From Rhodospirillaceae bacterium (GTDB lineage: Bacteria > Pseudomonadota > Alphaproteobacteria > GCA-2731375): a stretch of DNA of 64,000 nucleotides. Below are positions 3,256 through 40,986 of this stretch, in pieces. A model generated the notes under the pieces. That model was not told the DNA's origin. It saw only the letters and a program-made list of their open reading frames with translations, and did not search any database. Position numbers and translations under genes: made by a program. The stretch spans positions 1,144 through 65,143 of the forward strand of contig JABJKS010000106.1 in assembly GCA_018660265.1 (NCBI GenBank). Reading direction: 5' to 3'. The stretch's first letter is position 1, and the number at the start of each line of letters is the position of its first letter.

Positions 3256-3879
3256 ATGAATAGTACTTTAAATGGCACTTTGGATCGTAATCGGGCGGCG
3301 GACTATCCCTTGCGCAGACGAGAGGTGGTGGCGGATTTGCTGGCGGATCGCGGCGATATGCTGGTCGTCGCGGGCCTTGGCGCGCCGGTCTGGGATTGTA
3401 CGGCGGTGGAAGACCATCCCCTGAATTTTCCCCTGTGGGGTGCCATGGGCGGTGCTGCCGCTATGGGCCTGGGCCTGGCTATGGCCCAGCCGGAGCGTCG
3501 GGTCCTGGTGATTACCGGCGATGGTGAGATGTTGATGGGCCTGGGTGCGATGACCACCATTGGTTCGCAACAGCCCGAAAACCTGTCGGTCGTGGTCTGT
3601 GACAATGAACGTTATGGGGAAACGGGCATGCAGCTGACCCACACCGCCGGCAACCTGGATCTACCTGCCATGGCCCTGGCCGCCGGCTTTGCCTCTGCCG
3701 CTGCCGTCAGTTCCGACAATGAGTTTAAGGCAGCGCTTCCCGCTATTCGCAACGCCAAGGGACCCGGCTTTTGGTCCATTAAAATCAAGGCGGAAGATAA
3801 CCCCATCGGTGTCATGCCGCCCAAAGACGGTGTTACCCTGAAAGACCGCTTCCGCGCGGCGCTGTTAGGGGCAGCCTGA
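3256..3879 (+). CDS. comE: TPP-dependent decarboxylase beta subunit (sulfopyruvate or phosphonopyruvate decarboxylase ComE-like, TPP-binding domain)
   Basis: A 207 aa protein with a TPP-binding GDG-x(n)-N-type motif (ITGDGEMLMGLGAM...VVVCDNERYGETG). It is translationally coupled to the alpha subunit. Confidence 0.7.
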   Translation: MNSTLNGTLDRNRAADYPLRRREVVADLLADRGDMLVVAGLGAPVWDCTAVEDHPLNFPLWGAMGGAAAMGLGLAMAQPERRVLVITGDGEMLMGLGAMTTIGSQQPENLSVVVCDNERYGETGMQLTHTAGNLDLPAMALAAGFASAAAVSSDNEFKAALPAIRNAKGPGFWSIKIKAEDNPIGVMPPKDGVTLKDRFRAALLGAA

Positions 3880-3928
3880 ATATGCTCCAGGTGCGAAAAA
3901 CCTGACCGCTGGCCGATGCGACGACCGC
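3624..3928 (+). repeat. Direct repeat copy 1: the 3-prime 255 nt of the comE-like gene plus about 50 nt downstream, about 90 percent identical to 5073-5378
   Basis: Direct nucleotide comparison of 3641-3900 with 5081-5340. Homology starts at gggcatgcagct and continues past the stop codon. Confidence 0.8.
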
Positions 3929-3945
3929 GCTTGACCTCGGAGCGG

Positions 3946-4935
3946 TTAAACCGTAACGCGGTTCAGTATGGATTTTGCATCGTTAACTATTTCGTTGATG
4001 ATCTCAGCCGCCGGCTGAACCTTCCGCACCATCGACAGCCCTTGTCCCGCCCACATCGATAACGCTTCAATATTGCCTTCTGCATCAGGACCGGGCGTAT
4101 AACTCTGGTAGCGTAAAATTTCGCCACGAGACGGGGACCTGGCAATTACTTCGCCCTCGCCGGGACGATCACCACTCGGTGGCCTGCCTTCCGTCTCCCA
4201 CAGGTCAACCGTGCTATTACGCAGAACGCGATGCGGTGCGTCGGGCCACCCAACATTAAATAGATCATTGTGATGGGTCGTATCATTTTCGGATGCATCT
4301 AAAACACGCTGCTGGTAGTCGGGATGGATTTCGACTTCTTCGCTGGCAAGAAAACGGGTGCCAATCCAAGCGGCGGATGCGCCAAGTGCTAGAACTGCAG
4401 CCAGCCCCCGACCATCTGCAATGCCACCAGCCGCGATTACTGGAACATCACCGACTGCGTCGACGACAGCTGGCACCAACGGTAATGTCGCAACAGTTCC
4501 ACGGACGTGCCCGCCTGCTTCCCATCCCTGAGCGACGATTGCGTCAACACCACTGTCTACCGCTTTTCGCGCGGCTTCCGCATCCCCAACCGAATGCAAC
4601 ACAATTGCTCCGGCATCCTTTGCCTTCCTAATCAATGGCGTCGGGTCGCGCCAAAAAAAAGAAATGATCGGAACGCCTTCGTCCAAACAAGCGTCTAATA
4701 GTTTTTCCTGTGGGAAATCCATGTTCAAGTTTACGGCAAAAGGCTTTGCCGTGAGCGATTTGGTTTGACGAACAACTTTCCGAAGGTTCTCAACGTCTCC
4801 GCCCCATAATGGCAAAACGCCTAGACCACCGGCGTTGCTGACAGCCGCCGCTAACTTCGCTCCAACAGCTCCGCCCATTGGCGCTAACACAACGGGTAAT
4901 TCGACGCCAACGCATTCGCAAAAACTGGATGCCAT
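3946..4935 (-). CDS. Nitronate monooxygenase (NMO, 2-nitropropane dioxygenase, FMN-dependent TIM barrel) family
   Basis: A 329 aa protein with the LPVVLAPMGG N-terminal motif, a GGIADGRG flavin-binding region and the overall NMO architecture. It sits between the two copies of the comE tail repeat. Confidence 0.8.
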   Translation of the reverse strand: MASSFCECVGVELPVVLAPMGGAVGAKLAAAVSNAGGLGVLPLWGGDVENLRKVVRQTKSLTAKPFAVNLNMDFPQEKLLDACLDEGVPIISFFWRDPTPLIRKAKDAGAIVLHSVGDAEAARKAVDSGVDAIVAQGWEAGGHVRGTVATLPLVPAVVDAVGDVPVIAAGGIADGRGLAAVLALGASAAWIGTRFLASEEVEIHPDYQQRVLDASENDTTHHNDLFNVGWPDAPHRVLRNSTVDLWETEGRPPSGDRPGEGEVIARSPSRGEILRYQSYTPGPDAEGNIEALSMWAGQGLSMVRKVQPAAEIINEIVNDAKSILNRVTV

Positions 4936-5021: not shown

Positions 5022-5075
5022 CTTGTGGCAAAAGCAGAACTGTATTCTGTTGCACCCAATATCTGCTGTAGGGGG
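5022..5075 (+). repeat. 55-bp junction repeat (X-repeat) copy 1
   Basis: cttgtggcaaaagcagaactgtattctgttgcacccaatatctgctgtaggggg is about 89 percent identical to 7378-7430. It contains a short hairpin, cagaa..ttctg. A comE-like fragment follows immediately. Confidence 0.7.
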
Positions 5076-5331
5076 CATGCAGCTAACCTATACCGCCGGC
5101 AACCTGGACCTACCCGCGATGGCCTTGGCCGCCGGCTTTGCCTCCGCCGCTGCCGTCAGCTCCGACAACGAGTTTAAGGCAGCGCTTCCCGCTATTCGCA
5201 GCGCCAAAGGCCCCGGTTTCTGGTCCATCAAGATCAGGGCGGAAGATAACCCCATCGGTGTCATGCCGCCAAACGACGGCGTCACCCTAAAAGACCGCTT
5301 CCGCGCGGCGCTGTTAGGGGCAGCTTGAAAA
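5073..5331 (+). pseudogene. Fragment encoding the C-terminal 83 aa of a ComE-like beta subunit, a paralogous remnant with no N-terminal TPP domain
   Basis: Encodes MQLTYTAGNLDLPAMALAAGFASAAAVSSDNEFKAALPAIRSAKGPGFWSIKIRAEDNPIGVMPPNDGVTLKDRFRAALLGAA, which is near-identical to the C-terminus of the 3256-3879 product. The upstream reading frame passes through the unrelated X-repeat. Confidence 0.7.
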
Positions 5332-5529
5332 TGCTCCAGGCGCAAGAAATCCGGCCGCTGGCCGGCGCGACGCCCAATCGTGCCATCGGATCATGTCGGC
5401 TCCATGTGGCCAAGCAGACAATATTCCAGGATGGGTGCGATGACTGCCTTTGACCCGACTCGGATCTTCATCAGCGGTCAATGGGCCGCGAAAATAGTTG
5501 AGAAATTACTTGTTACACAGGGACCCCTA

Positions 5530-7377: not shown

Positions 7378-7430
7378 TTATGGCACAAAGCAGAATTGTA
7401 TCCTGTTGCACCCAACGTCTGCTGTTGGGG
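7378..7430 (+). repeat. 55-bp junction repeat (X-repeat) copy 2
   Basis: cttatggcacaaagcagaattgtatcctgttgcacccaacgtctgctgttgggg. A fragment matching comE at 3298-3362 follows. Confidence 0.7.
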
Positions 7431-7518: not shown

Positions 7519-7962
7519 CTAAACGCCTGACGTGCGGCGTAGGGGTTCGAGGCGGAAGCTTAGGCGAACCCAGTTTTTCTGCAACCGGTCGCCGTCCATC
7601 AAATAGTGGGTGCGCAAGGCGGATATGTCGCGGTAGCAACGCTGTAAGGCTTCACCGTCGTTCATGGCACTGCTGCCACCGGCGATAAATAGAACATCCA
7701 CGACCTTTGCCGTTTACTCCACGCATTGTTGCAGCAGCATTTGCATATGGGCGCGTGTCCCGAAGGCACCCGGCGCAGCGCTTCGCATTCGTTGGCGCGG
7801 GCCCGCAAACCCGGGATCAGGTCGCGGGCCCGTTGGGGCATGACCTCAGAGCTTAGGTTCAGGTCAACTTCGTGGCTATGGTCCGCCCGGCATTGTCCCG
7901 TATTTCTAACCCCGCGACGGCAGTACCACCACGCCGGTGCCTTGGATCGATAGTTCATCATC
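7519..7962 (-). pseudogene. Degraded remnant of an acyl-CoA-dehydrogenase-like flavin monooxygenase: an N-terminal piece and a C-terminal piece, out of frame with each other
   Basis: The minus-strand ORFs encode LIPGLRARANECEALRRVPSGHAP, which is N-terminal-like, and VLFIAGGSSAMNDGEALQRCYRDISALRTHYLMD, which resembles the conserved C-terminal helix of ACAD-fold monooxygenases. There is no intact reading frame. Confidence 0.35.
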
Positions 7963-9060
7963 TTGCTGATGGGCCTTTTGGCTGATCTCTACACAATGGC
8001 GACCATCACCATCGATGAATTTATTGCTCACTTCGCCGTTGATATACAGCACGTCGCCTTCCGGGTTATGGCGGCGGATACGGGTTTTGTGGTTGGCCAG
8101 GAAACCGTCATCGCCCATCCAGTTGGTTAGGTGATGGGTCAGCCAGGAGACCCGCTCCGGCCCATAGTCATAGGCACCGGGGGCACCGACTTCGACTGCG
8201 AAATCGTTCTCCCAATGCACCCGCTCGGGGCAGTCGGGGATGTTAAAGCGGTTGGTAATGCCCAGGCCGGGATGTTTATGGATCTGTTGCCAGGCTAGTT
8301 TGTTGGCACGAATATAAAGCCCACCCCAACCTTGGGCATAGCAGATGAAGCCCGTGGCGGTCATGGGGCCTTTGAGCATCGTGGGTAACTTGTCGCCGAC
8401 GTTGACGTCTTCATAATAACGGGTTTCGCCACCCCGGATTTCTTCCTTGGCATAATGGCGATAGATATCCACCAGCTCTTCCTCGGTATAGCGCAGCTGG
8501 CCTTTTTTTGCGGCGTCATACTTGGTGCCGGCTTCCCGCGCCTTGTCGCGTTCCGTGCGGAAGCACCAGCTGTCGGCGCTGCAGATATTGTCGCCGTCCT
8601 GGTTATAGAATTCCACATGATAGACCTGCTCGATCGCGCGGCCTGAAAATTGTGTGTCGTGGGGGATCAGCTCCTTCAACCAGGCTTCACAATGGACTTC
8701 GTCATTGCGGTTTAGATGCTTATGCCAGTTCCAATCAGCCCCGGCCCACATGGCATGGATGCCGGGCAATCCGCCAACATAGCCGGAGATGATGCGGTTG
8801 GTCGCGAACAGAAATGAGGGCAAGGCGATCAGGCCGTCATATTTGGTCTTCGCGGCATATTCGGGATCACACCACAGGGGATTGTCGTCACCGATGCCGT
8901 GGGCATAGTGGCGGATGTTGTCCCGGGTTGCCTCGTAACACCACGGCTCCGGCATATTCTCGATCTTCACGCCGACGCGTTTTTGTAGATCTTCCAGGCC
9001 CCGTTCGGAGATTTTGGGGAACCGTCCCCCACTTTCGCTGGCTTGGCTTTCGTCGCTCAT
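7906..9060 (-). CDS. Double hot-dog (FAS1-like N-terminal plus MaoC-like C-terminal) acyl dehydratase/hydratase
   Basis: A 384 aa protein. It is a clear paralogue of 38660-39811, sharing RDxIRHxAxGxGDDNPLWxDxxYAAK and later blocks. It lies downstream of a CoA ligase in the same orientation. Confidence 0.7.
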   Translation of the reverse strand: MSDESQASESGGRFPKISERGLEDLQKRVGVKIENMPEPWCYEATRDNIRHYAHGIGDDNPLWCDPEYAAKTKYDGLIALPSFLFATNRIISGYVGGLPGIHAMWAGADWNWHKHLNRNDEVHCEAWLKELIPHDTQFSGRAIEQVYHVEFYNQDGDNICSADSWCFRTERDKAREAGTKYDAAKKGQLRYTEEELVDIYRHYAKEEIRGGETRYYEDVNVGDKLPTMLKGPMTATGFICYAQGWGGLYIRANKLAWQQIHKHPGLGITNRFNIPDCPERVHWENDFAVEVGAPGAYDYGPERVSWLTHHLTNWMGDDGFLANHKTRIRRHNPEGDVLYINGEVSNKFIDGDGRHCVEISQKAHQQDDELSIQGTGVVVLPSRG

Positions 9061-9063
9061 TGT

Positions 9064-10611
9064 CTACTCTCCTCTCGCGGCCGCTTCGCGGTCCCGCAGT
9101 ATTTTACGATTAACTTTGCCCGCCGGCGTCTTTGGCAACTCGTCCGCGAAGGCGACGATGCGGGGATATTCGTGACGGCTCAAATTCTCTTGAGCAAATA
9201 ATTGAAGTTCCTTGATAAAGCTGTCATCACCGTCCCGGTCGCTGATGATGAAAGCCTTGACGACGAGGCCCCGGATGTCGTCGGGAACACCGATCACGGC
9301 GGCTTCCAACACATCCGCATGTTTTAAAAGGGTATCTTCAATTTCCATTGCCGACATGGTCCAGCCGGCGGAAATGATGACGTCGTCGGCCCGCCCGCCG
9401 TGAAAAAAATAACCTTCGGCATCAATGTGCCCGCGATCCTTGGTGGGGAACCAGCCGTCCCGGCGCATGACCATGATCTCGCCCACTTCGTCCGGGGCGC
9501 AATGTTCACCCTTGGGGTTCAGAATGGCGACGTCCTGGCCGGGGATGGGCATGCCCAAAGATCCCAGTTTCGGCGGCAAATCCTCGGCCCCCGGATAACT
9601 ACCCAGCAGGACGCCAACTTCTGTTGTGCCGTAGAAACTGCACGGATACTGGCCAAACGTGGCCTTGGCCCATTCCGCCGTGTCCGTATCCATGGGTTCG
9701 CCGGTAAAGCTGACTTTTTCCAGGTTGAAGTTGTAATTGCCGGAGGTGCCGGCGTTTTTCATCATCCTGAAATGGGTTGCCGCCGCCGACAGATTGCTGA
9801 TCTCAAACTCTTCCAGGGCTGCCATCAACCGCTCCGGATCGAACTTGCCGGCATAAGAGGCCGTGGTAATGCCCAGAGCATGGGGCGACAGGGTGCCGTG
9901 CCAAAGACCATGCCCCCACGCGGTGGAGGAGGGGCACATGAAACGGTCGCCGGGCCTGGTGCCGGTGCCGTACAGGGCGGCCAGCATGACCGTGACAATG
10001 GATTGGTGGCGATGCTTCACGGCATCGGGCAATTCCCGCGTGGTGCCGGAAGTATATTGATACATCGCCATGTCACGGCCGGCGGTGGTCATTTCAAAGG
10101 CCGTATCGTAATTTTCAAGCATGGCCATGAAGTCATCATCTGCGATGGCCGTGTCGCAACCCGCATCTGCGGCCAAATCCGTCTTTTCAGGGGCCAACAG
10201 CAGGAATTTCGGCTGGCAGTCCCCAACCCGTAAACGCAACGCATCGGGGCCGAACAGGGTGAACATGGGCACCGCCACACAGCCGGCCTTCATGGCACCG
10301 TACAGGGCAATATAAAAATGCAATGACGGCTCTACCATCAGGGCAACCCGTTCGCCCGGCGCGATGTCCTGGGCGCGAAGATAGTTGGCGTAACGTCCCG
10401 ACCAGTCGGATATTTCGCCGAACGTGTAGCTTTCCGAACCACCTTCCGCCAAGGCAATCCGCACCGCCACGCGGTCCCGGGGGTGGCGTTCGATACATTC
10501 GTGGGCAATGTTCAGGGCCTCCCGATCGCCATCGAACAATTCCCAAAGTCTTTCTTTGGAACAGTGCTTTTGAGCGTCGGCGAATGAGGTGTAGTCGGTC
10601 AGCAGTGGCAT
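9064..10611 (-). CDS. AMP-dependent synthetase/ligase (acyl-CoA synthetase family)
   Basis: Contains the AMP-binding motif YTSGTTRELP (the YTSGTTG-type box) and a C-terminal PKTPAGKVNRK lysine motif. The start is placed at the ATG at 10611 (MPLLTDY). The ORF-track start at 10671 is a TTG that lies inside the operator motif. Confidence 0.8.
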   Translation of the reverse strand: MPLLTDYTSFADAQKHCSKERLWELFDGDREALNIAHECIERHPRDRVAVRIALAEGGSESYTFGEISDWSGRYANYLRAQDIAPGERVALMVEPSLHFYIALYGAMKAGCVAVPMFTLFGPDALRLRVGDCQPKFLLLAPEKTDLAADAGCDTAIADDDFMAMLENYDTAFEMTTAGRDMAMYQYTSGTTRELPDAVKHRHQSIVTVMLAALYGTGTRPGDRFMCPSSTAWGHGLWHGTLSPHALGITTASYAGKFDPERLMAALEEFEISNLSAAATHFRMMKNAGTSGNYNFNLEKVSFTGEPMDTDTAEWAKATFGQYPCSFYGTTEVGVLLGSYPGAEDLPPKLGSLGMPIPGQDVAILNPKGEHCAPDEVGEIMVMRRDGWFPTKDRGHIDAEGYFFHGGRADDVIISAGWTMSAMEIEDTLLKHADVLEAAVIGVPDDIRGLVVKAFIISDRDGDDSFIKELQLFAQENLSRHEYPRIVAFADELPKTPAGKVNRKILRDREAAARGE

Positions 10612-10663
10612 GGTGGGAACCCGAGTTGCGGCGAAGACAGAGAATTTTAGGATATCTCCAATA

Positions 10664-10698
10664 ATTGTCAATACGCAATAATATTGTCTATAGACAAT
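10664..10698. promoter_or_regulatory. Operator-like 35-bp motif, site 1: ATTGTCAATACGCAATAATATTGTCTATAGACAAT
   Basis: It contains an 18-bp perfect palindrome, TATTGTCTATAGACAATA. The site is centred in the divergent intergenic region between the CoA ligase and the thioesterase genes. It matches 40952-40986 at 30 of 35 positions. Confidence 0.6.
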
Positions 10699-10767: not shown

Positions 10768-11715
10768 ATGAACTTACAAGCGCCAGACCTGCCCGGTGAT
10801 ATCACCAGCGACATCCCAGATGGTTTCCAGCCTTTTGTCCACAATGGGCGTTTCGCGGATTGCATTGGTCCGTTCTATGCCAAAGCACTGCCAGAAGGCG
10901 GCTTTCGCTATCTTTTCAAAACAGCCGCCATGCACGCCAATCCCAATGACGTTACCCATGGTGGTGCGTTGTACAGTTTTGCCGATCACATAACCGGACA
11001 TGCCGTCGTCAACGCTACGCACCGGGGTTGCGCCACGATCAAGTTCAAGGTGGAATACCTCTCTCCCGTACCTCTTGGGACCTTGGTCGAAGGGACGGTC
11101 GAATTGGTCCGCATCACCCGCACCATGGCGTTCTTGCGTCTGCGCCTGTTTGCAGGCGATCTAACCCTGATGACCGCCGATGGTGCCTATAAATTGTTCG
11201 CGCCATTTGATCCGGCCATGTTTGATCCCCTAAATCCGGGCCTGGGCAAAGAGGAACCGGCGCAAGGTACGGAAGTGCTGCCAGAGTTGCCGGAGGGATT
11301 TCAACCCTTTCCCAGCCAGGGAAGTTTCCCCGCCTTATGCGGGCCGACCCATTATCGCCGGGACAAAGACGGCGGCTTCATGAACGGCTTTCAGGCCCGG
11401 CAGATGCATGACAACACCAACAACATTGTCCATGGCGGGGTGCTGTTTACCTTCGCCGATGATATTATGGGCCGGGCCAGCTCGGGCATAACACGGCGCA
11501 TGTCCACGACCATTGCCCTGAATGTGGAATATCTGGCGCCGGCACCCCTTGATGCCTGGATCGAAGGCGCCACGGAAATCACCTATATGGATGATCGCTT
11601 TGCCTTTGTCCGCAGTCGCATCTTTCACGGCGACCGCATTCTTCTGACCGCCGATGGCGTCTGGCGCCTGTTACAACCACATAGTTATTCAAAAAAGACG
11701 GAGGCTGCGAAATGA
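10768..11715 (+). CDS. Tandem double PaaI/4HBT-type hot-dog thioesterase
   Basis: Two repeats of the PaaI-like motif (NPNDVTHGGALYSFADHITGHA and NTNNIVHGGVLFTFADDIMGRA). The start is chosen at ATG 10768 with the RBS gagagggg. Confidence 0.65.
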   Translation: MNLQAPDLPGDITSDIPDGFQPFVHNGRFADCIGPFYAKALPEGGFRYLFKTAAMHANPNDVTHGGALYSFADHITGHAVVNATHRGCATIKFKVEYLSPVPLGTLVEGTVELVRITRTMAFLRLRLFAGDLTLMTADGAYKLFAPFDPAMFDPLNPGLGKEEPAQGTEVLPELPEGFQPFPSQGSFPALCGPTHYRRDKDGGFMNGFQARQMHDNTNNIVHGGVLFTFADDIMGRASSGITRRMSTTIALNVEYLAPAPLDAWIEGATEITYMDDRFAFVRSRIFHGDRILLTADGVWRLLQPHSYSKKTEAAK

Positions 11716-12596
11716 GTGTTCCCATCAGTCAGCAGACAATTGGTGCGGCCAGGGTCACAAGGGTGGAGGAGATGGCCGGCCCGGGATTTCGCCTTTCCAC
11801 CATTTTTCCCGACTGGGACGCGGCTGTGTTTGAAGAGCATAAGGACTGGCTGGTGCCCACATATGTCAATCCGGAGAAGATGACCGCCCTGTTGAATATG
11901 CATTCCTGGGTCGTCGAACATAATGGCTTGACCGTGCTGATCGATACCTGTGTCGGCAACGACAAGGACCGCATGCCGGCGGAAAACTGGACCAACAATC
12001 AAGGCCCCTACTTGGAACGCCTGGCGGAGGCGGGATTTCAGCCTGAGGACATTGACATGGTCATGTGCACACATCTGCACGTGGATCATGTGGGTTGGAA
12101 CACAAAGCTGCTGGATGGCCGTTGGGTGCCGACCTTTCCCAATGCCAAGTATCTTTTTTCCCGGGCTGATTTTGAGCATTATCAAGCCCATGCGGAAGAG
12201 GATATGGATCGTTTAAGCTTTGTGGATTCCGTGCTGCCCATCGTCGAACACGGTCTGGCGGAAATGACCGAGGGGGATCATCTTCTGGCGGAAGGCCTGT
12301 TGCTGGAACCGGCACCGGGACATACACCGGGCCATATCACCCTAAAATTGGAATCGGGCGCGGATGCCGCGATTTTCACGGGCGATATTCTGCATCATCC
12401 CTTGCAAGTCTATCATCCCGAATGGAACAGTCGTTTTTGTATTTTGCCGGATGAAGCGCGAACGTCCCGGCGGCGGGTGCTGGATTTTTGCGCTGATCGT
12501 GGTGCCTTGTTGATGCCGGCGCATTTCGGTGCGCCCCATTGCTGCCACATTGACAGGGCAGGGGAAGCCTATAGCCTGCGTTGGCATCACGGTTAG
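11712..12596 (+). CDS. MBL-fold metallo-hydrolase (metallo-beta-lactamase superfamily)
   Basis: Contains the HxHxDH motif CTHLHVDHVG and the downstream His/Asp ligands. It overlaps the thioesterase stop by 4 nt (atga), so the two are likely co-transcribed. Confidence 0.7.
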   Translation: MSVPISQQTIGAARVTRVEEMAGPGFRLSTIFPDWDAAVFEEHKDWLVPTYVNPEKMTALLNMHSWVVEHNGLTVLIDTCVGNDKDRMPAENWTNNQGPYLERLAEAGFQPEDIDMVMCTHLHVDHVGWNTKLLDGRWVPTFPNAKYLFSRADFEHYQAHAEEDMDRLSFVDSVLPIVEHGLAEMTEGDHLLAEGLLLEPAPGHTPGHITLKLESGADAAIFTGDILHHPLQVYHPEWNSRFCILPDEARTSRRRVLDFCADRGALLMPAHFGAPHCCHIDRAGEAYSLRWHHG

Positions 12597-19199: not shown

Positions 19200-21251
19200 A
19201 TGGCCTGGATCATCGGCGTTGATGTCGGCGGAACTTTTACGGATTTTCACGTTTATGACGATGAAAGCGGTGAGCTGCGCATCCATAAGACCCCTTCGAC
19301 ACCGGATAACCCGGCCAGGGCGGTCCTGAACGGCATTAATGAGCTGTCTGATGATATGAAGCTGGCGGATGTCAGCCGCCTATCCCACGGCACTACCGTG
19401 GCCACCAATGCCCTGATCCAGCGCCGTGGCGGCAAAGTGGCCTTGCTGGTCACCGAAGGGTTTCGTGATCTGCTGGAAATTGGCCGGCAAATCCGCCCCC
19501 ACATGTTCAGTTTTCAACAGGATCACCCAACCCCCCTGGTGCCGCGAGAGAGGCGTTTGGAGGTGGCCGAACGTATTCTTTTTGACGGCTCGGTTCATCG
19601 GCCTTTAACTCAAGCCGCAATCGATGGTGCCGTCGTCGCCGTACGGGAAAGCGGTGCCGATTGCCTGGCGATTTGTTTGATATTCGGCTTCATCAATCCC
19701 GATCACGAGAGGCGATTGCGCGACGCCCTTACATCGGCCCTGCCGGATCTACAGATCTCTATCTCATCAGAGGTGCAGCCGGAGTTTCGCGAGTACGAGC
19801 GTCTGTCCACGACCGTCCTGAATGCCTTTCTACAGCCAATCATGGGCAGCTATCTGACCGAATTCGAGGATCAACTGACCAAGTTGATGCCCAATGCAGA
19901 CCTGGGCATCAACCAATCCGCCGGCGGCCTGATGACACCCAGCCGGGCCCGGCAGCTGCCCATTCGCACGGCCCTATCGGGGCCGGCGGCAGGCGTCGTC
20001 GGGGCGGTTGATGCCGCGCGCTCCGCCGATCTGACCAACGTTATCACGCTTGATATGGGCGGTACCTCGGCCGATGTCTGCCTGATCCGCGATTTAGAGG
20101 CTGATGTGGCCTATGACCGCTGGATTGAAGGCTACCCGGTGCGCCTGGCCAGTGTGGATGTGAACGCGGTTGGCGCGGGGGGTGGTTCCATCGCCTGGTT
20201 TGAACGGGATGGTCTGATGAAGGTGGGACCACAAAGTGCAGGCGCGGTGCCTGGCCCGGCCTGTTATGGTCAGGGCGGTACGGAGCCGACGGTTTCGGAC
20301 GCCAATCTGGTGCTGGGCCGGTTATCACCGAAAGGTCTGTTGGGCGGCGGTATGGCTCTTGACGTTGACGCCGCGCGCGCCTCCCTGACACCAGCCGCAG
20401 AACGCCTGGGCATGACAATTGAGCGCACGGCGCATGGTATTCTAGGTATTGTTGCTGCCAATATGGTCCGCGCCATCCGAACTATATCCGTCGAACGGGG
20501 CCATGATCCCCGTGATTTTGTCTTGCTGCCGTTCGGCGGTGCTGGGCCGTTGCATGCAGTTGATGTGGCCCGTGCGCTTGGTATCAACCGGATGTTGGTG
20601 CCCATGGCACCGGGCATTCTGTGCGCTCGTGGATTGGTGGTGTCCGATTTGCGGGAAGGTTTCGTTATTAGCCGGGTGATGCCGTTGGTGGCAGACGCCA
20701 TGGGCGACATCACGGCCAATCTTGTGGATTTGGGACGGCAAGCAGCAGCTTGGTTCGCGCAGGCGGGCATTGATGCGGACGACCGGCAAACCATGTTCAG
20801 CCTGGATATGCGCTATATCGGGCAAAATTACGAATTGCAGGTGGACCTTGATGATGCCCAGGCCCAGGTGCCCGCGCTTTCGGTCCTGGCGGAAAAATTC
20901 TTCGCCGCTCATGAACGCAGCTATGGCTATCATAATCCCGAAGACCCGGTGGAAGTTGTGAACCTGCGGGTTACGGCCATTGGTCGCTTGGCAGGTCCAG
21001 GTGATGGGGGCTGGCAGGCGATGGCAGCGCCGGGTACCAAGGCGCAGGCGGATACCACCCGACAGGTCTGGTTCAGTGGTGATACCTCGGTAGAGACACC
21101 GGTCTATGATCGGGCCAAGTTGCTGCCGGGTCATGAATTTGACGGTCCTGCGGTAATAGAGCAACTGGATGCCACCACGATTTTGGCCCCAGGGGATCAA
21201 TGCCGCATTGACCAAGCCGGCAATCTATATGTGGAGCTAAGCCATGAATAG
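19200..21251 (+). CDS. hyuA: Hydantoinase/oxoprolinase family A subunit (HyuA-like; N-methylhydantoinase A, caprolactamase alpha or 5-oxoprolinase A family)
   Basis: The N-terminus MAWIIGVDVGGTFTDFHVYDDESG is the hallmark Hydant_A_N motif. 683 aa. Confidence 0.85.
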   Translation: MAWIIGVDVGGTFTDFHVYDDESGELRIHKTPSTPDNPARAVLNGINELSDDMKLADVSRLSHGTTVATNALIQRRGGKVALLVTEGFRDLLEIGRQIRPHMFSFQQDHPTPLVPRERRLEVAERILFDGSVHRPLTQAAIDGAVVAVRESGADCLAICLIFGFINPDHERRLRDALTSALPDLQISISSEVQPEFREYERLSTTVLNAFLQPIMGSYLTEFEDQLTKLMPNADLGINQSAGGLMTPSRARQLPIRTALSGPAAGVVGAVDAARSADLTNVITLDMGGTSADVCLIRDLEADVAYDRWIEGYPVRLASVDVNAVGAGGGSIAWFERDGLMKVGPQSAGAVPGPACYGQGGTEPTVSDANLVLGRLSPKGLLGGGMALDVDAARASLTPAAERLGMTIERTAHGILGIVAANMVRAIRTISVERGHDPRDFVLLPFGGAGPLHAVDVARALGINRMLVPMAPGILCARGLVVSDLREGFVISRVMPLVADAMGDITANLVDLGRQAAAWFAQAGIDADDRQTMFSLDMRYIGQNYELQVDLDDAQAQVPALSVLAEKFFAAHERSYGYHNPEDPVEVVNLRVTAIGRLAGPGDGGWQAMAAPGTKAQADTTRQVWFSGDTSVETPVYDRAKLLPGHEFDGPAVIEQLDATTILAPGDQCRIDQAGNLYVELSHE

Positions 21252-22950
21252 TACAGCGACGCCTGACACCGCGGAAATTGACCCCATCACCCTGGAAATT
21301 TTGCGAAACAGCCTGCGTTCGATCACCGATGAAAGCTATATCGCCCTGACCAAGGCGGCCTATTCCACCAACATCAAGGAACGCCGGGATCATTCAATTG
21401 CCATTACCGACGCCCGGGGGCGGTTGGTGGTGCAATCGGAAAACTCCCTGCCCATCCATCTCGCCTCCATGCTGGGGATGATGGAAGCCCTGACCGCGAA
21501 ATACAGCGCCGACGACATGACGCCGGGCGATATTTTCGTTGCCAATGATCCATATGTCGCGGGCGGCACCCATTTACCGGACGTCAATTTAGCGATGCCG
21601 GTCTTCATTGACGGGGAACTGTTGGGCTTCGTCTGTAATATCGCGCACCATGCGGACATTGGCGGCATGACGCCCGGCAGTATGGCTGGTGGGATGTCGG
21701 AGATTTATCAGGAAGGTCTGCGTATTCCCCTGGTACGCCTGTTTGCGGGCGGCGAGTTGGTGCAGGATATTTTCGATCTGCTGTTATTGAACGTCCGGGT
21801 GCCGCATGAACGCCGGGGTGATTATTTCGCCCAGGTCGCGGCCTGCCGCCTTGGTTCCCGCCGAATGGCGGAATTGGCCCAGCGCTATGCGCCTGAAATG
21901 CTGGTGCGTTCGTTTGATGCCATTATGGATCGAACGGAAGGCCGCCTGCGTGACGGCATTCGTACTATTCCCGATGGGGTCTACGAATTTGCCGATCTGC
22001 TGGATAACGATGGTATGGGCACGGTGGATATCCCCATTGCTGTCCGTATCGAGGTGAAGGGCGCGGATATTGCCTTTGATTTTGCCGGTACGGGCGACCA
22101 AATGAAGGGCAATTTCAACATGACCTTCAACGCCGCGCAATCGGCGGTGTACTACGTCCTGAAGGCGATGCTGGACCCTGATTTGCCCAACAATTACGGC
22201 TTGATCCGGGCAGTGGAGATTAGCGCGCCACTGGGTTGTCTGGTCAATGCAGTTCACCCGGGCGCGGTGGCGGGCCGGGCCAATACCTCGCAACGGGTCG
22301 TCGATGTGCTGATCGGTGCCATGGCACAGGCCTTGCCCGAACAAGCCGTGGGCGCTGCCAATGGGGCCAATGTGACAGCAGTATTTTTTGGCCACGATCC
22401 CCGCCACGACCGGCCTTACTTATACCTGGAGACCCTGGGCGGCGGCTTTGGTGGCCGTTTTACCAAGGATGGAAAAGATGGCGTGCAGGTGCATATTACC
22501 AACACCTCCAACCTGCCCGTAGAATCAATCGAGGCGGAGTATCCCCTGCTGGTGGAAAGTTATGGCCTGATCCCGGATTCGGGCGGTGCCGGCAAATATC
22601 GGGGCGGCCTGGGCATTCGCCGGGTGGTGCGGCCTTTGGGGCACGAGACCGTTTTCTCAGGCATGGGTGAACGCTTCAAGCATCAGCCGTGGGGTATTTT
22701 TGGCGGCGGGCCCGGCGGAACGGGACGTTTCTCTGTCCAGGGTCCCAGCCATAATGACGAGACCTTGCCCGACAAACCGAACCATGTACCCCTCGGCCCT
22801 GAAGATGCTGTGATCATCGAAACTCCAGGTGCCGGCGGCTATGGTGAACCGCGTGAGCGGGAGGCCGAAGCCTTGGCCGCCGACTATCGCGACGGTAAGT
22901 TCAGCGCGGAATACCTGCGCCAACATTACGGTTTTGAGCCTGCGGAATAG
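21244..22950 (+). CDS. hyuB: Hydantoinase B/oxoprolinase family subunit (HyuB-like)
   Basis: A 568 aa protein overlapping hyuA by 8 nt, with conserved Hydantoinase_B blocks (DPYVAGGTHLPD, GGGFGGR). Confidence 0.85.
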   Translation: MNSTATPDTAEIDPITLEILRNSLRSITDESYIALTKAAYSTNIKERRDHSIAITDARGRLVVQSENSLPIHLASMLGMMEALTAKYSADDMTPGDIFVANDPYVAGGTHLPDVNLAMPVFIDGELLGFVCNIAHHADIGGMTPGSMAGGMSEIYQEGLRIPLVRLFAGGELVQDIFDLLLLNVRVPHERRGDYFAQVAACRLGSRRMAELAQRYAPEMLVRSFDAIMDRTEGRLRDGIRTIPDGVYEFADLLDNDGMGTVDIPIAVRIEVKGADIAFDFAGTGDQMKGNFNMTFNAAQSAVYYVLKAMLDPDLPNNYGLIRAVEISAPLGCLVNAVHPGAVAGRANTSQRVVDVLIGAMAQALPEQAVGAANGANVTAVFFGHDPRHDRPYLYLETLGGGFGGRFTKDGKDGVQVHITNTSNLPVESIEAEYPLLVESYGLIPDSGGAGKYRGGLGIRRVVRPLGHETVFSGMGERFKHQPWGIFGGGPGGTGRFSVQGPSHNDETLPDKPNHVPLGPEDAVIIETPGAGGYGEPREREAEALAADYRDGKFSAEYLRQHYGFEPAE

Positions 22951-31354: not shown

Positions 31355-32971
31355 CTAATCCAACCCATCAGGCGTTATGAAGCCTTCGGCTAGATCAGCG
31401 TTAATCGCTGTTTGCGCGCGGTCTTTCGGATCGCCGAAACCACCCCCCCCCGCTTCAATCAGGGTGATACGGTCACCCGGCGCTAATTCATAGTGGCCTT
31501 TCGGGTCCACAGTGACATCGTTGACCCGGTGTTCCCTGGCCTGGCCGGGGGCACCGCCCATAAGGCCCAGGGGTGGAAACTCCGTCCGATTGGCCATACA
31601 AAAGACGGTCATCAGATGGCCGCTATCATTGCGGATCACCACCTCTTGGCCCAAACCGCCACGAAATTCCCCGGCCCCGCCTGAATTGGGCAGCAATGCC
31701 TTATGCTCGATGCTGGTGGAGGTCAGGGTCTCCCATACTTCAACCGGGACCACAGCCATATTGGACGGCCCGGGTGTCGTCTCCGCCCCGTCCATGCCGG
31801 CCAAGGCACCGAAACCACCGGAGGCGAAATAGATCGTTGAGACGTCATGGCCGTCCCGGTGTTTGCCCTGAAAGGTCATCAAATCCATCATGCCGCAATC
31901 GGCCTGAATGCTGTCGGGAACAGCCGCTGCCAAGGCACCAAAAACCAGGGGCGAGACGAAATGGCCGATCATATGGCGCGCACCGGTGGCTGAAGGGGGC
32001 TGGGCATCCAGCAGGCAACCGGTTGGTGCGGTGACGGTGATGGGCACCACAGAGCCGCCATTGTTGGGCAATTCGGGCACGGTCAGACACTTCATGGAAT
32101 ACAGCACCATGGCGCGGGTATAACAAAACGGTACGTTGATGCCCCGGCGCACGCAGGGATCGGTGCCGGTGAAATCGACACTCATGGTATCGCCGGTGAT
32201 CTCTATTGAACAAGCCAGGGTCAACGGGCCATCCACGCCCTCTATCTGAATTTCGTTCTGATAGATGCCATCGGCCATATCGGCGATGCGCAGGCGGGTC
32301 GCCGCCTCGGACCGGCCGCGAATTTCACCGGACAGGTCCGCAAAATCCGGCAGATCGAATTCATTGAGAAAATCCGTCAACATGGTCTCGCCGGCCTTGG
32401 TCGCGGTGACATTGGCCATCAGATCACCGATAACTTGATCAGGTGCCCGCACATTGGTCCGCATCAATTCGATGATGAAATCGTTCTGCAGGCCGGCGTC
32501 GAACAATTTGCAAACCGGCAGGCGCAGACCTTCGTGATAGATCTCCCGCGCTGCCGCGCCAAAACCCAAACCACCAATGTCGGGTAAATGGGTGATGGAA
32601 ATGACGTAGGCAACGATAGTGCCGGCAAAGAATATTGGCCGCATGACATTGATATCGAACGTATGCCCGGTGCCCAACCAGGGATCGTTGGTGATCACCA
32701 CATCGCCGGGCTGCAGGCTGTCGGCGGGATAGACATCCAGCATATGCTGCAGGGTTGCAGGCGCGGTGCCCATGAAAACCGGTACGCTGTAGGTGCCCTG
32801 GGCCATCAATTGACCTTGCGCATCCAGCAGGGCGACGGTCAGATCATAACTTTCGCTTACGATGGTGGAGAATGATGTGCGTACCAACGTCGATACAATT
32901 TCGTCGGAGACCGCAACCAGCCGATCCCACATGATGCCGACGCTGACGGCGTCCAAGGTTTTGGCGGTCAT
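31355..32971 (-). CDS. hyuB: Hydantoinase B/oxoprolinase family subunit (HyuB-like), second copy
   Basis: A 538 aa protein with Hydantoinase_B conserved blocks. It overlaps the upstream hyuA by 4 nt. Confidence 0.85.
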   Translation of the reverse strand: MTAKTLDAVSVGIMWDRLVAVSDEIVSTLVRTSFSTIVSESYDLTVALLDAQGQLMAQGTYSVPVFMGTAPATLQHMLDVYPADSLQPGDVVITNDPWLGTGHTFDINVMRPIFFAGTIVAYVISITHLPDIGGLGFGAAAREIYHEGLRLPVCKLFDAGLQNDFIIELMRTNVRAPDQVIGDLMANVTATKAGETMLTDFLNEFDLPDFADLSGEIRGRSEAATRLRIADMADGIYQNEIQIEGVDGPLTLACSIEITGDTMSVDFTGTDPCVRRGINVPFCYTRAMVLYSMKCLTVPELPNNGGSVVPITVTAPTGCLLDAQPPSATGARHMIGHFVSPLVFGALAAAVPDSIQADCGMMDLMTFQGKHRDGHDVSTIYFASGGFGALAGMDGAETTPGPSNMAVVPVEVWETLTSTSIEHKALLPNSGGAGEFRGGLGQEVVIRNDSGHLMTVFCMANRTEFPPLGLMGGAPGQAREHRVNDVTVDPKGHYELAPGDRITLIEAGGGGFGDPKDRAQTAINADLAEGFITPDGLD

Positions 32972-35037
32972 GATCCTGCCTCCAACTCCGCGATCAGATT
33001 GCCGAACTCATCCACTTCGACCTTATCACCAGGGCCAATTACAACGGTGGATTCCCGTTCTTCGATCAAGGCAGGCCCATCTATGACCGCGCCCATGGCC
33101 AAGCTATAGCGGTCATAGACCAGCGTCGTCATATAATCTTCACCAAAATAGGCCTGACGGCTCCCCTTGGGCCTCGCCGTGCCTTGTGCATCAGGTGCTG
33201 CTGTCGTCAACTCCGGGGCGGTTGCCGTGGCTTCCACCTTCCAGGTCGTAATGACCAAAGGTGCATCCAGTAATGCCGCGCCGTGTACAGTGGCGTAATG
33301 ATCCCGGAAGATATCCGGTAATGCCCCAATATCCGAACCTGTGGGCAGGGTAACCTCTATCTCGTGGCCCTGGCCGTGATAACGCATGTCCAGCCGTTGG
33401 ATGACCGACAAATCCGTGCCGGCGCTCTGCAATGGTGCCTTTGCCTCAATTTCCAGGTCCGCCAGGGTGGCCGCGAAATCCTCGGCGCTTAGGTCCGCGA
33501 CAAAGGCCTGTTTGGTGCGCGCAACTTCAAACGTCAAGGGGCTGGCCAGCAATCCCAGGGCGGACATGACACCGGCGGCGACGGGGAATATCACCCGTGG
33601 AATGCCCAGTTTGCGGGCCACGCCCATGGCATGCACCGGGCCGGAACCGCCAAACGCCACCATGGAGCTGCCGCGATAGTCAAAACCGCGTTCCGAGGCG
33701 TGAATGCGAAAGGCCCGCGCCACATCTTCATCAACAATTTCGTGAATCCCCCAAGCCGCCCGCGCCAGGGATAGCTTCAGCGGCCCCGCGATTTGCGTTT
33801 TGATCACCTGTTCGGCGGCGGCCACATCCAATGCCATGGCACCGCCGAGAAAGAAATTCGGGTCCAGATAACCCAGCACCACATTGGCATCGGTCAACGT
33901 AGCGGCCTGACCGCCCTGGCCATAGCAGGCGGGCCCTGGATCGGCGCCTGCACTATGCGGCCCGACACGAATTGTGCCGCGTACATCGACCGCGGCGATA
34001 GAGCCACCGCCTGCACCGATCTCGATCATATCAATGACCGGGCTTTTCACGGGCAGACCGCTGCCGGCCTTAAAATCGTGCACCCGGGCGACTTCCTGGA
34101 AATAGACCTTGATGGCTTCGCCGCCACGTATCAGGGCGCCCTTGGCGGTGGTGCCCCCCATATCGAACGACAGCAATTCCGGGCGCTTTAGGGCCCGGCC
34201 ATGAAAGGCAGACATTTGCGCGCCTGCCGCCGGGCCGGATTCAATAACCCGGGCCGGAAACTTTCGTGCCGTTTCAGGTGTCAACGTGCCGCCGCTGGAA
34301 GACATCACGAACAACTGCCCGGCAAATCCCAGATCATTCAGACCGCTTTCCAAGCGTCGTAGATATTGATCGAACATGGGCTGGGTAAAGGCATTGATGC
34401 ATGTGGTGGTGAACCGTTCATATTCACGCCATTCCGGGCAGACCTCCGATGACAGGGATATGTTCAGGTCAGGAAAAGTCGCCGCCGCCATGTCTCCCAG
34501 GGCCCGCTCGTGATCAGGATTGGCATAGCCATGGAGGAGACATATGGCCAGCGACGTGATGCCCTCGCGGCGCACAAGGTCCGCCAACGTCGCCCGCGCT
34601 GCGTCCAGATCCAGGGTTTGTTCGATGGTGCCGTCATAATGCACCCGTTCCGCGACCTCAACCCGGCGGCGGCGCGGCACCAGGGGTTCGGGGAAAACCA
34701 GACGCAGATCGAACACGTCGTATCGTTTCTCCTGGCGCATATCCAGGATGTCGCGAAAGCCTGCCGTGGTCAGCATACCGGTGACAGCGCCCTTACGCTC
34801 GATCACCGCATTGGTTACCAGGGTGGTGCCATGGACGATTTCGACCACGGGGGATAAATCAAGGCCCTGTTGGCCCAGCAACGCCATCGTACCTTCCAGC
34901 ACGGCGCGGGCGGGGTCATCGGGTGTGGTGAGCTGTTTATGGATGGCAAAACTGCCGCCTGCCTCGTCATAGAGGGCGAAATCAGTGAACGTACCGCCGA
35001 TATCGATGCCCAGTCGGTAGGTGGAGCGGGCGGCCAT
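32968..35037 (-). CDS. hyuA: Hydantoinase/oxoprolinase family A subunit (HyuA-like), second copy
   Basis: The N-terminus is LGIDIGGTFTDFALYDEAGG. 689 aa. Confidence 0.85.
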   Translation of the reverse strand: MAARSTYRLGIDIGGTFTDFALYDEAGGSFAIHKQLTTPDDPARAVLEGTMALLGQQGLDLSPVVEIVHGTTLVTNAVIERKGAVTGMLTTAGFRDILDMRQEKRYDVFDLRLVFPEPLVPRRRRVEVAERVHYDGTIEQTLDLDAARATLADLVRREGITSLAICLLHGYANPDHERALGDMAAATFPDLNISLSSEVCPEWREYERFTTTCINAFTQPMFDQYLRRLESGLNDLGFAGQLFVMSSSGGTLTPETARKFPARVIESGPAAGAQMSAFHGRALKRPELLSFDMGGTTAKGALIRGGEAIKVYFQEVARVHDFKAGSGLPVKSPVIDMIEIGAGGGSIAAVDVRGTIRVGPHSAGADPGPACYGQGGQAATLTDANVVLGYLDPNFFLGGAMALDVAAAEQVIKTQIAGPLKLSLARAAWGIHEIVDEDVARAFRIHASERGFDYRGSSMVAFGGSGPVHAMGVARKLGIPRVIFPVAAGVMSALGLLASPLTFEVARTKQAFVADLSAEDFAATLADLEIEAKAPLQSAGTDLSVIQRLDMRYHGQGHEIEVTLPTGSDIGALPDIFRDHYATVHGAALLDAPLVITTWKVEATATAPELTTAAPDAQGTARPKGSRQAYFGEDYMTTLVYDRYSLAMGAVIDGPALIEERESTVVIGPGDKVEVDEFGNLIAELEAGS

Positions 35038-36632
35038 CAGCGATTGTCCGGCAATACGTCGATGGCATCGCCAACGCCGCGCTCTCGCAATTCATGGCGG
35101 GCGATTTCATTCTTGGTCATGGTACGGGGAAAATCTGCGACGAACTCCATATAACGGGGGACCTTGAAAAAGGCGATGCGATCCTGACACCATTCCACCA
35201 GCTCCATTGGTTCCGGCGTCGCCTCGTCCTCCGACAGCTGGATGTAGGCTTTGATGTCTTCTTCGCCAATGTCCGATGGCACGCCGACGACGGCGCAGTC
35301 GATCACGGCAGGGTGGGCCGTCATTGCCTTTTCCACTTCGAAGGCGGAGACGTTTTCGCCCCGACGGCGGATCCAGTGGGCCTCCCGTCCAACGAAATAG
35401 AGAAAGCCATCGTCGTCCAGATAACCCAGATCACCACTGTGGTACCAAAGGTTCTTCCAGGCCGCCAAAGTCTCGGTCGGTTTGTTGATATACTCGATCA
35501 TGTAAGTGTTGGGTACTTTGGGGCGCAGGAGGATCTGCCCGGTGGTGTTCGCCGGCACCGGGTTGTCGTCCGCATCCACGATCATCACCTCTGTCCAGCC
35601 GTGGGGCCGGCCACAGGAACCAAGACGGCGATCAAAGGTCCGCTCGCTACAGATCAGCACGCCCATCTCGGTCATGGAATAGACTTCCATCATGGGTGTG
35701 CCGAAACGTTCCTCAAACTCATCGCGCAGATCCCGGCGCACCTGGCCGGCGGCAATGCCAACGCCGATGCGAACTTTATGGTTCTTATCCTGATCGGATG
35801 CAGGGGCCCGCAACAACACCGCCATCATGGTGCCCAAGGGATCGATGACCGTGACGCCATATTTGCGGATAATCTTCCAGTAGTTGGAGGCCGAGAACCA
35901 TTTTTCCATGATCCCGGTCATGCCGAGATAAAGGGGGGAGGTGATGGCGAATTGCTGACCGCCAATATGGAAGAAATGTGAATTCGCAAAATGCACATCG
36001 TCCTCCGTCGCCTCGGCAATATCGCCATAGCGGATCGCGGCGGCGATATAATACAGATGCGACACCAAAACACCCTTGGGCATGGACGTGCTGCCGCCCG
36101 TATAGACGATGCACATAGGGTCGGCGGCGGCGACGTCGGCATCAGGCAGGGTTTCATCATCGCCCATCAGATCGCTAAAGGGCAGGGTGCCGGGACCGGG
36201 AACGGCGGCCACATCGCCCAGGACCAGGACCTCCGGATCGCCGGTCAGGTCCGGTTTGGCGGCGTTATAGGCAGGGGCCAGTTCTTCATCCACCACCAAC
36301 AGCTTTGCGCCGGTGTCGTTCAGGCTGTAACACATATCATCCTTGACCAGGCTGACATTCAGGGAGGCGTAGATCGCGCCGATCTTTGCACAGCCGAACC
36401 AGATCAAGGCCTGTTCAAGGGAATTGTACATCAGGGTGGCGACCACATCGCCCTTGCCGATACCGTGGGCCAGCAGGCGATTGGCGACCTTGTTTGACAG
36501 ACGGTCGGCGTCTGCGTATGTCAGCGTTTCATCACGGCAGATCAGATAGGGTTTGTCGCCATAGCTGGCGCGCATGACGATCAGGTCGCGCAAGGTTGTT
36601 GCGTGGGGTGTGCGGCCAAGGATATCGATCAT
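35037..36632 (-). CDS. AMP-dependent synthetase/ligase (acyl-CoA synthetase family)
   Basis: Contains the AMP-binding box IVYTGGSTSMPKGV and a C-terminal lysine. 531 aa. Confidence 0.8.
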   Translation of the reverse strand: MIDILGRTPHATTLRDLIVMRASYGDKPYLICRDETLTYADADRLSNKVANRLLAHGIGKGDVVATLMYNSLEQALIWFGCAKIGAIYASLNVSLVKDDMCYSLNDTGAKLLVVDEELAPAYNAAKPDLTGDPEVLVLGDVAAVPGPGTLPFSDLMGDDETLPDADVAAADPMCIVYTGGSTSMPKGVLVSHLYYIAAAIRYGDIAEATEDDVHFANSHFFHIGGQQFAITSPLYLGMTGIMEKWFSASNYWKIIRKYGVTVIDPLGTMMAVLLRAPASDQDKNHKVRIGVGIAAGQVRRDLRDEFEERFGTPMMEVYSMTEMGVLICSERTFDRRLGSCGRPHGWTEVMIVDADDNPVPANTTGQILLRPKVPNTYMIEYINKPTETLAAWKNLWYHSGDLGYLDDDGFLYFVGREAHWIRRRGENVSAFEVEKAMTAHPAVIDCAVVGVPSDIGEEDIKAYIQLSEDEATPEPMELVEWCQDRIAFFKVPRYMEFVADFPRTMTKNEIARHELRERGVGDAIDVLPDNR

Positions 36633-36647
36633 GGTTGTGCCTCTGCT

Positions 36648-39811: not shown

Positions 39812-39839
39812 GTCGTCACCTGCCTATTTTCTCCACCGG

Positions 39840-40889: not shown

Positions 40890-40951
40890 TTTGGTGCTTC
40901 CTCTATTTGCATCAACCTGACAGCAGCAAAATCATTATGGAACTGGACATA

Positions 40952-40986
40952 GTTGTCAATGTGCAATACTGTTGTCTATAGACAAT
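40952..40986. promoter_or_regulatory. Operator-like 35-bp motif, site 2: GTTGTCAATGTGCAATACTGTTGTCTATAGACAAT
   Basis: It has the 14-bp perfect palindrome TTGTCTATAGACAA at its core. It lies 12 to 46 nt upstream of the iclR start and inside the divergent promoter region of the LLM operon. Confidence 0.6.

Follow-up and report, generated by a model that had tools for sequence, protein, structure and literature searches.

A two-box palindromic element at two divergent promoter regions is a predicted operator of an autoregulated IclR-family protein

What protein reads a 35-bp non-coding element that recurs almost unchanged in two promoter regions of one stretch of DNA, and what would it control there? 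The question is raised by a 64-kb sequence (the window, i.e., the whole stretch that we analysed), which matches contigs of uncultured marine alphaproteobacterial MAGs (e.g., GCA_018671365.1). An earlier note on this DNA had singled out the 35-mers at 10664-10698 (hereafter site A) and 40952-40986 (site B); both coordinates are right and the two share 30 of 35 positions. An independent repeat search stretches the pair to 38 nt with 87% identity (10661-10698 versus 40949-40986), and the flanks outside this block show no alignment between the two sites. Given the size and composition of the window, about 6e-4 pairs of 35-mers with at least 30 matches are expected, which upholds the view that the likeness is unlikely to be due to chance. 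The 64 kb contain just two copies of the 14-bp core TTGTCTATAGACAA; with up to three mismatches the core has five matches as against 0.78 expected, a count that none of 100 shuffles reached. A position weight matrix (PWM) scan of the window with the box 2 matrix (see below for the boxes) returned no third site, the next-best matches reaching at most 12.4 bits, within the range of the shuffles.

In each element a 3-nt linker joins two 16-bp palindromes, the first of them imperfect (box 1) and the second built around the core TTGTCTATAGACAA (box 2), and the whole 35 bp displays an overall dyad symmetry around the linker; at both sites of the window, the centres of the boxes are 19 bp apart. At site A, box 1 (10664-10679; ATTGTCAATACGCAAT) carries TTGACA on its reverse strand, the linker AAT (10680-10682) forms with its neighbours the hexamer TAATAT (10679-10684), which is -10-like for rightward transcription, and box 2 (10683-10698; ATTGTCTATAGACAAT) is a perfect palindrome over all 16 bp. 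Site B has box 1 at 40952-40967 (GTTGTCAATGTGCAAT) and box 2 at 40971-40986 (GTTGTCTATAGACAAT), the latter centred about 20 nt before the start codon of an IclR gene and ending 12 nt ahead of it. The earlier description of a perfect palindrome at both sites thus stands for the full box at site A; at site B, where the first A is replaced by G, it applies to the 14-bp core only.

Pfam scans of the long open reading frames bear out the genes that had been assigned to either side, with both sites lying in divergent intergenic regions. Site A separates an AMP-binding CoA ligase on the minus strand from a double-hotdog thioesterase on the plus strand. The leftward operon (7906-10611, minus strand) comprises the ligase (9064-10611) and a 384-aa MaoC-like/FAS1_DH_region protein (7906-9060), and the rightward genes (10768-12596, plus strand) code for the 4HBT thioesterase (10768-11715) and a metallo-beta-lactamase-fold protein (11712-12596), a pair that in relatives is preceded at site A by an IclR gene. 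Site B lies between a luciferase-like monooxygenase (LLM) operon on the minus strand (31355-40889) and the IclR gene on the plus strand; the operon runs from the LLM (39840-40889) through a MaoC-like protein (38660-39811), a family III CoA-transferase (36648-38663) and an AMP-binding ligase (35037-36632) to hydantoinase A (32968-35037) and hydantoinase B (31355-32971). The MaoC-like proteins of the two sites are full-length paralogues (34% identical over 373 aa, E = 5e-65), such that both operons have in common a paralogue of this unusual 380-aa protein and an acyl-CoA ligase. Sequence comparison found no relative of solved structure for the MaoC-like protein of site A. None of the ten regulon proteins scored above cut-off against NCBIfam and, as a result, no substrate can be named.

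The surroundings hold further features of note. At 41795-41798 the IclR gene (plus strand) and a Mo-hydroxylase large-subunit gene (minus strand) converge with a 4-bp overlap. Two separate hydantoinase A/B gene pairs are present (19200-22950 and 31355-35037), and the window also encodes AtuA, a carboxyltransferase, an enoyl-CoA hydratase, a nitroreductase and an F420H2-dependent quinone reductase, which makes this a region rich in uncharacterised catabolic genes. A 300-nt direct repeat of 89% identity (3624-3923 versus 5073-5372) is present as well; its second copy duplicates the 3′ end of a TPP_enzyme_C gene (3256-3879) together with downstream sequence and lies beyond a nitronate monooxygenase (NMO) gene (3946-4935, minus strand), a placement that suggests an insertion or duplication event. 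Further, a 44-nt element, AAAGCAGAAYTGTATYCTGTTGCACCCAAYRTCTGCTGTWGGGG, occurs at 5031-5074 and 7387-7430 (89% identical), each copy about 75-100 bp upstream of the start of a minus-strand gene (the NMO gene and an adenylate-cyclase/TPR gene), and could be another regulatory element that two promoters have in common.

As binder of the two sites we propose the 266-aa product of the IclR gene (40998-41798, plus strand). It is, by its domains, a bona fide member of the IclR family, with an HTH domain (PF09339, HTH_IclR; residues 28-79, 38.2 bits against a cut-off of 22) followed by an effector-binding domain (PF01614, IclR_C; residues 103-264, 52.7 bits against 24), and it matches IclR-family proteins of solved structure (5tjj, E = 4.9e-18; BlcR 3mq0, E = 1.7e-8). 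Among the named IclR subfamilies in NCBIfam, BhcR, PcaR/PcaU/PobR, AllR and KdgR all fall far below their cut-offs; membership in the PcaR/PcaU/PobR subfamily (TIGR02431) was thus rejected at 62.8 bits against 284.75. The earlier note had named this protein as the candidate regulator, and the Pfam scans of the open reading frames of the window found no other HTH or DNA-binding regulator.

Comparative evidence ties the element to this protein. As a matrix derived from a pattern scan is biased at the positions that the pattern specifies, we based the conservation claim on a protein-anchored set, namely 80 metagenome loci fetched by IclR protein similarity alone. TTGT-N6-ACAA is present in 58 of the 66 distinct regions upstream of IclR orthologues (46-84% identity), and has a single match in the remaining 342 kb of these loci; the eight upstream regions from which the strict core is absent count against an operator of IclR. 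The recognition-helix region, PST[AC]LHILR, hardly varies across orthologues that are 47-100% identical. Orthologues from soil and freshwater (46-51% identical) feature TTGTAYATATACAA-type palindromes, usually accompanied by an upstream half-site, TTGTACAA or TTGTCAAA, 20 bp away. The core TTGTCTATAGACAA is found unchanged in the isolate Paraburkholderia sp. Ac-20347, whose IclR is 48% identical and which has TTTTGTCAAATACG followed 20 bp on by TTTTGTCTATAGACAAAA; on a Pseudosulfitobacter plasmid, ATTGTCAAT is followed 20 bp on by GTTGTATATAGACAAT, immediately before the IclR gene. The distant orthologues thus have box centres 20 nt apart, one more than the 19 nt of the window and its close relatives. 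Site A of the window and that of the MAG ANT-29 are identical at 33 of 33 positions and have a strongly diverged right-hand flank; evolutionary constraint falls on the predicted operator itself.

The boxes vary in some lineages. Three loci (L052, L054 and L055; IclR 72-75% identical) have TTGTTTATTGACAA or similar as box 2, which is nearly the reverse complement of box 1, i.e., an inverted duplicate takes the place of the usual box 2 core. In an abundant marine lineage (L044, at 3900-3990, and L047), an IclR orthologue (77% identical) lies directly beside hydantoinase A, box 2 is lost along with the LLM, MaoC-like, CoA-transferase and ligase genes, and a remnant, ATTGCAATATATGC, is left. The loss of box 2 in this lineage despite retention of IclR counts against the IclR-operator reading.

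The position of the IclR gene itself is informative. In most close relatives (e.g., L011, L013 and L019), an IclR gene whose product is 74-81% identical is located at site A, with the operator on one side and the thioesterase gene on the other, and three such genomes display a second copy of the operator at a site B without IclR (L027, L031 and L041). The window and ANT-29 are the mirror image of these, with IclR at site B and a site A that lacks the gene and keeps the operator; no genome of the close group showed the gene at both sites. That one regulator gene is found at either of the operator-bearing promoters, and that the vacated promoter keeps its operator, is hard to explain unless the regulator serves both. 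Together with the occurrence of the core in 58 of the 66 upstream regions, this exchange of sites supports the earlier proposal that one DNA-binding protein, probably the adjacent IclR, acts on both loci. In the relatives with an IclR-less site B, a mere 16-24 bp separate the operator from where the Mo-hydroxylase gene ends.

IclRs encoded at site A share 74-83% identity with those encoded at site B, which is also the range among IclRs from one and the same site; a left flank of 15 nt, ATTATGGAACTGGACA, goes with the gene at whichever site it occupies; and the IclR-less site A of the window retains an exact 11-nt match, GCGTGCTATGA, flanked by weak similarity, to the iclR 3′ end of relatives and to their spacer between iclR and the thioesterase gene, which, although the alignments are short, is plausibly a deletion scar. 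On these grounds we tentatively entertain, as a possibility that we would not favour, that, in one clade of marine Alphaproteobacteria, a single autoregulated iclR cassette (-35 element, operator and gene) moved between the promoters, with the shared operator as the homology for ectopic recombination, rather than that two old paralogues were lost reciprocally. A neighbour-joining tree of the IclR proteins did not separate relocation from duplication with reciprocal loss. The arrangement of the ligase and MaoC-like genes divergent from IclR and thioesterase recurs in cultured Beta- and Alphaproteobacteria and at almost every orthologue locus of soil, freshwater or marine origin, and is, on the comparative evidence, ancient. 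Two more distant marine genomes encode two paralogous IclRs each, one per site type (A-type and B-type): the MAG JAKZTB (L020 and L032, 62% identical to each other) and the contig WLWD01000040.1 (L058 and L061). The operators of these paralogues are nearly identical and their recognition helices the same, making cross-regulation between them likely.

The element is interwoven with putative promoters, all of them called as consensus matches only. A sigma-70-type promoter of the ligase operon is predicted at 10644-10671 (minus strand), with TTGACA inside box 1, 16 nt and TAAAAT (11 of 12 consensus positions), and that of the LLM operon at 40931-40959 (minus strand), with TTGACA again inside box 1, 17 nt and AATGAT (10 of 12). 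In the other direction, a predicted iclR promoter, confined to IclR-bearing sites, would use the -35-like TGGACA (40944-40949, plus strand) 17 nt before a -10 element, TACTGT (40967-40972), in the linker. Across the close group, TTGACA, the leftward -35 inside box 1, is present at 19 of 20 sites, and the rightward -35-like hexamer 9 nt before box 1 at all 15 IclR-bearing sites (TGGACA at 13, a one-base variant at two); after a 17-nt spacer, the latter is paired with a TAnnAT-like -10 that spans the linker and reaches into box 1 on one side and box 2 on the other. These hexamers could account for part of the conservation seen in box 1 and the linker.

We consider it likely, with good though not full confidence, that the 35-bp element is the operator of the IclR encoded at 40998-41798 and serves both sites as one regulon. 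An IclR tetramer, as a dimer of dimers, would sit on the two 16-bp palindromes, whose centres, 19 bp or about two helical turns apart, would place it on the same face of the DNA. The same protein would bind its own promoter at site B and the ligase/thioesterase copy at site A, joining the two divergent promoter pairs in one small regulon that is potentially devoted to the CoA-dependent catabolism of a carboxylic acid. When bound to both boxes it would mask the -35 of one promoter and, in the opposite one, the spacer, the -10 and the start site. Because the operator overlaps predicted promoter elements in both directions, repression is the most likely mode; the layout suggests repression rather than activation, with both operons and iclR itself as the targets and with release by a small-molecule effector. 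Binding by IclR, the tetrameric stoichiometry and the existence of an effector are all deduced from the DNA and its comparison across genomes.

Several other explanations of the element have to be weighed against an IclR operator. The earlier note had itself named a high-copy dispersed repeat as the outcome that would undo its proposal, and we accordingly scanned 185,579 species-representative genomes with a strict two-box pattern, TTGTNNATNNNCAATN{4,5}TTGNCNNTAGACAA, of 21 specified bases, which misses single-box or degenerate sites and was run over MAGs that are incomplete. It gave 26 matches, at most two per genome, of which 24 come from marine Alphaproteobacteria or Rhodospirillaceae MAGs and lie at orthologous intergenic regions, between the ligase and (IclR)/thioesterase genes or between the LLM/MaoC-like and (IclR)/Mo-hydroxylase genes. 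Two sites are present in each of the MAGs ANT-29, PW8, PW10 and CAYFPL. The remaining two, outside Alphaproteobacteria, are from Paraglaciecola and Desulfotalea and are both unrelated, the context in Desulfotalea being uninformative. In 377 kb of related marine loci, matches of at least 16 bits sit at known two-box sites, with the exceptions of one extra 17.7-bit match just past an IclR gene (L061:4920) and of the unrelated loci L017 and L028; no further PWM matches were seen at other promoters there. The low copy number and the orthologous promoter context reject a dispersed repeat, and Pfam found no transposase domains in the genes flanking either site. What speaks for a mobile repeat (REP or MITE) or a Tn7-like transposon end is the near-identical tandem TTGTCCATAGACAAT repeat beside a TnsA-like gene in Paraglaciecola chathamensis (L028, 3338-3371), which resembles such an end and whose likeness to the operator is coincidental; we give this origin practically no credence. 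A hairpin in the 5′ leader of an RNA is just as hard to credit. At either site the 40-nt plus strand does fold, at about -9 kcal/mol, and the z-score for site A is -4.6, but this is the automatic result of two similar palindromes in tandem; the z-score at site B is only -1.65, its minus strand does not fold, neither intergenic region matches Rfam, the predicted starts leave box 1 outside both transcripts, and asymmetric variants that break the pairing (e.g., TTGTATATAGACAA) are common among the orthologues. Nor does it seem at all probable that a promoter module was copied, so that shared ancestry and promoter hexamers explain the likeness with no dedicated operator. Such copying would account for the TTGACA in box 1 and the -10-like hexamer in the linker, and the presence of the IclR gene with its flank ATTATGGAACTGGACA at either site in different genomes implies that part of site B is homologous by descent to site A modules elsewhere. 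Yet box 2, which is not a promoter hexamer, is the best-conserved part, persists between Alpha- and Betaproteobacteria and is still there at sites with neither the IclR gene nor the left flank; moreover, orthologous sites are more alike than the two sites of one genome, which gives no sign of recent conversion.

Two further alternatives concern the identity and the mode of action of the regulator. Sites of GntR/HutC-type regulators often have a GT-N-TA-N-AC core, and the core GTCTATAGAC presumably resembles those of HutC type, which would fit a different regulator encoded elsewhere (e.g., of the GntR/HutC type), with the adjacency of IclR being incidental. The motif is as closely associated with the ligase/MaoC-like operon as it is with IclR, and the lineage with IclR but without box 2 (L044/L047) points the same way. 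We nevertheless hold a different regulator to be very unlikely: neither the window nor the conserved neighbourhoods yielded a gene of GntR or another HTH type, the motif goes with the IclR gene to site B, a place without the ligase operon of site A, and a tandem layout of 19-20 nt placed about 20 nt before the IclR start codon is typical of the IclR family. It is also unlikely, if less strikingly so, that IclR binds the element but activates the leftward operons with an effector, in the manner of PobR and PcaU, and represses only its own gene. In favour of activation, box 2 lies at about -45 to -60 from the predicted leftward starts, a position that activators use, and the best NCBIfam similarities of the protein, though far below cut-off, include the PcaR/PcaU/PobR subfamily. 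Likewise, the palindrome of the distant orthologues with its one extra upstream half-site resembles three-box PcaU-type sites (PMC8222616). Against this, the leftward promoters are close to the consensus as they stand (10-11 of 12 positions), and since a perfect -35 lies inside box 1, occupancy of that box should block RNA polymerase.

With IclR as the probable repressor at both sites, the operator TTGTC-TATA-GACAA and its two-box layout are now defined, as a prediction, for a widespread and uncharacterised group of IclR orthologues. The group is tied to a conserved module of an acyl-CoA ligase, the 380-aa MaoC-like protein, a family III CoA-transferase and a thioesterase, which ranges from soil Burkholderiales to uncultured marine Rhodospirillaceae-like bacteria. 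Two carriers in culture, Pseudosulfitobacter sp. DSM 107133 (IclR orthologue WP_114295097.1) and Paraburkholderia sp. Ac-20347, offer a direct route to the inducer and hence to the substrate of the pathway. As an autoregulated IclR operator with a two-promoter regulon, the predicted system is real but ordinary, of a kind that the field of transcription regulation would expect.

In the literature, a full-text search for six variants of the operator core returned only unrelated work on synthetic UTRs, a search that combined IclR with MaoC, CoA ligase and repressor gave nothing relevant, and the core variants are absent from the supplementary tables of the main survey of IclR sites (PMC8222616). 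That survey, which like our analysis infers sites by phylogenetic footprinting, covers 94 orthologous groups of IclR regulators and predicted tandem palindromes with centres 18-22 nt apart, mostly 19-21, consistent with tetramers on one face of the DNA, with site centres peaking near -22 from the start codon (Suvorova & Gelfand 2021, PMC8222616). The element described here shares with these sites a palindrome of about 16 bp, tandem placement at 19-20 nt, a position about 20 nt before the start of the regulator gene and a location in a divergent promoter region. The main consensus types published are GKTYCRYW3-4RYGRAMC (TGT-11-ACA and relatives) and TGRAACAN1-2TGTTYCA (PMC8222616). Neither fits the half-sites of the window, TTGTC/GACAA with 4 nt between them (TGT-6-ACA), which are 5 nt closer. 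Published consensuses of this kind describe the main types and are no requirement of the family.

Among individual systems, PobR and PcaU of Acinetobacter baylyi are similar in that an IclR regulator is divergent from its target and an extra repeat lies beside the palindrome, and the PobR operator, TTGTCCGATSATCGGACAR (tabulated in PMC8222616), has the outer bases TTGT...ACAA like those of the window. They differ in being activators of aromatic-acid catabolism with a longer palindrome (19-21 bp). BlcR (AttJ) of Agrobacterium tumefaciens, the structure noted above (3mq0), is the closest functionally named solved relative of the window IclR. It is a repressor that binds as a tetramer to two adjacent inverted-repeat sites and is released by a small ligand. 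TtgV of Pseudomonas putida is likewise a tetrameric repressor with two adjacent inverted-repeat sites and release by a small ligand (PMC8222616). To both, the similarity is distant and the operator sequences are unrelated, and their pathways, gamma-butyrolactone catabolism and an efflux pump, respectively, differ from that of the window. Set beside these systems, the predicted operator is typical of the IclR family in its symmetry, tandem spacing and position, and differs from the main published types in the spacing of its half-sites.
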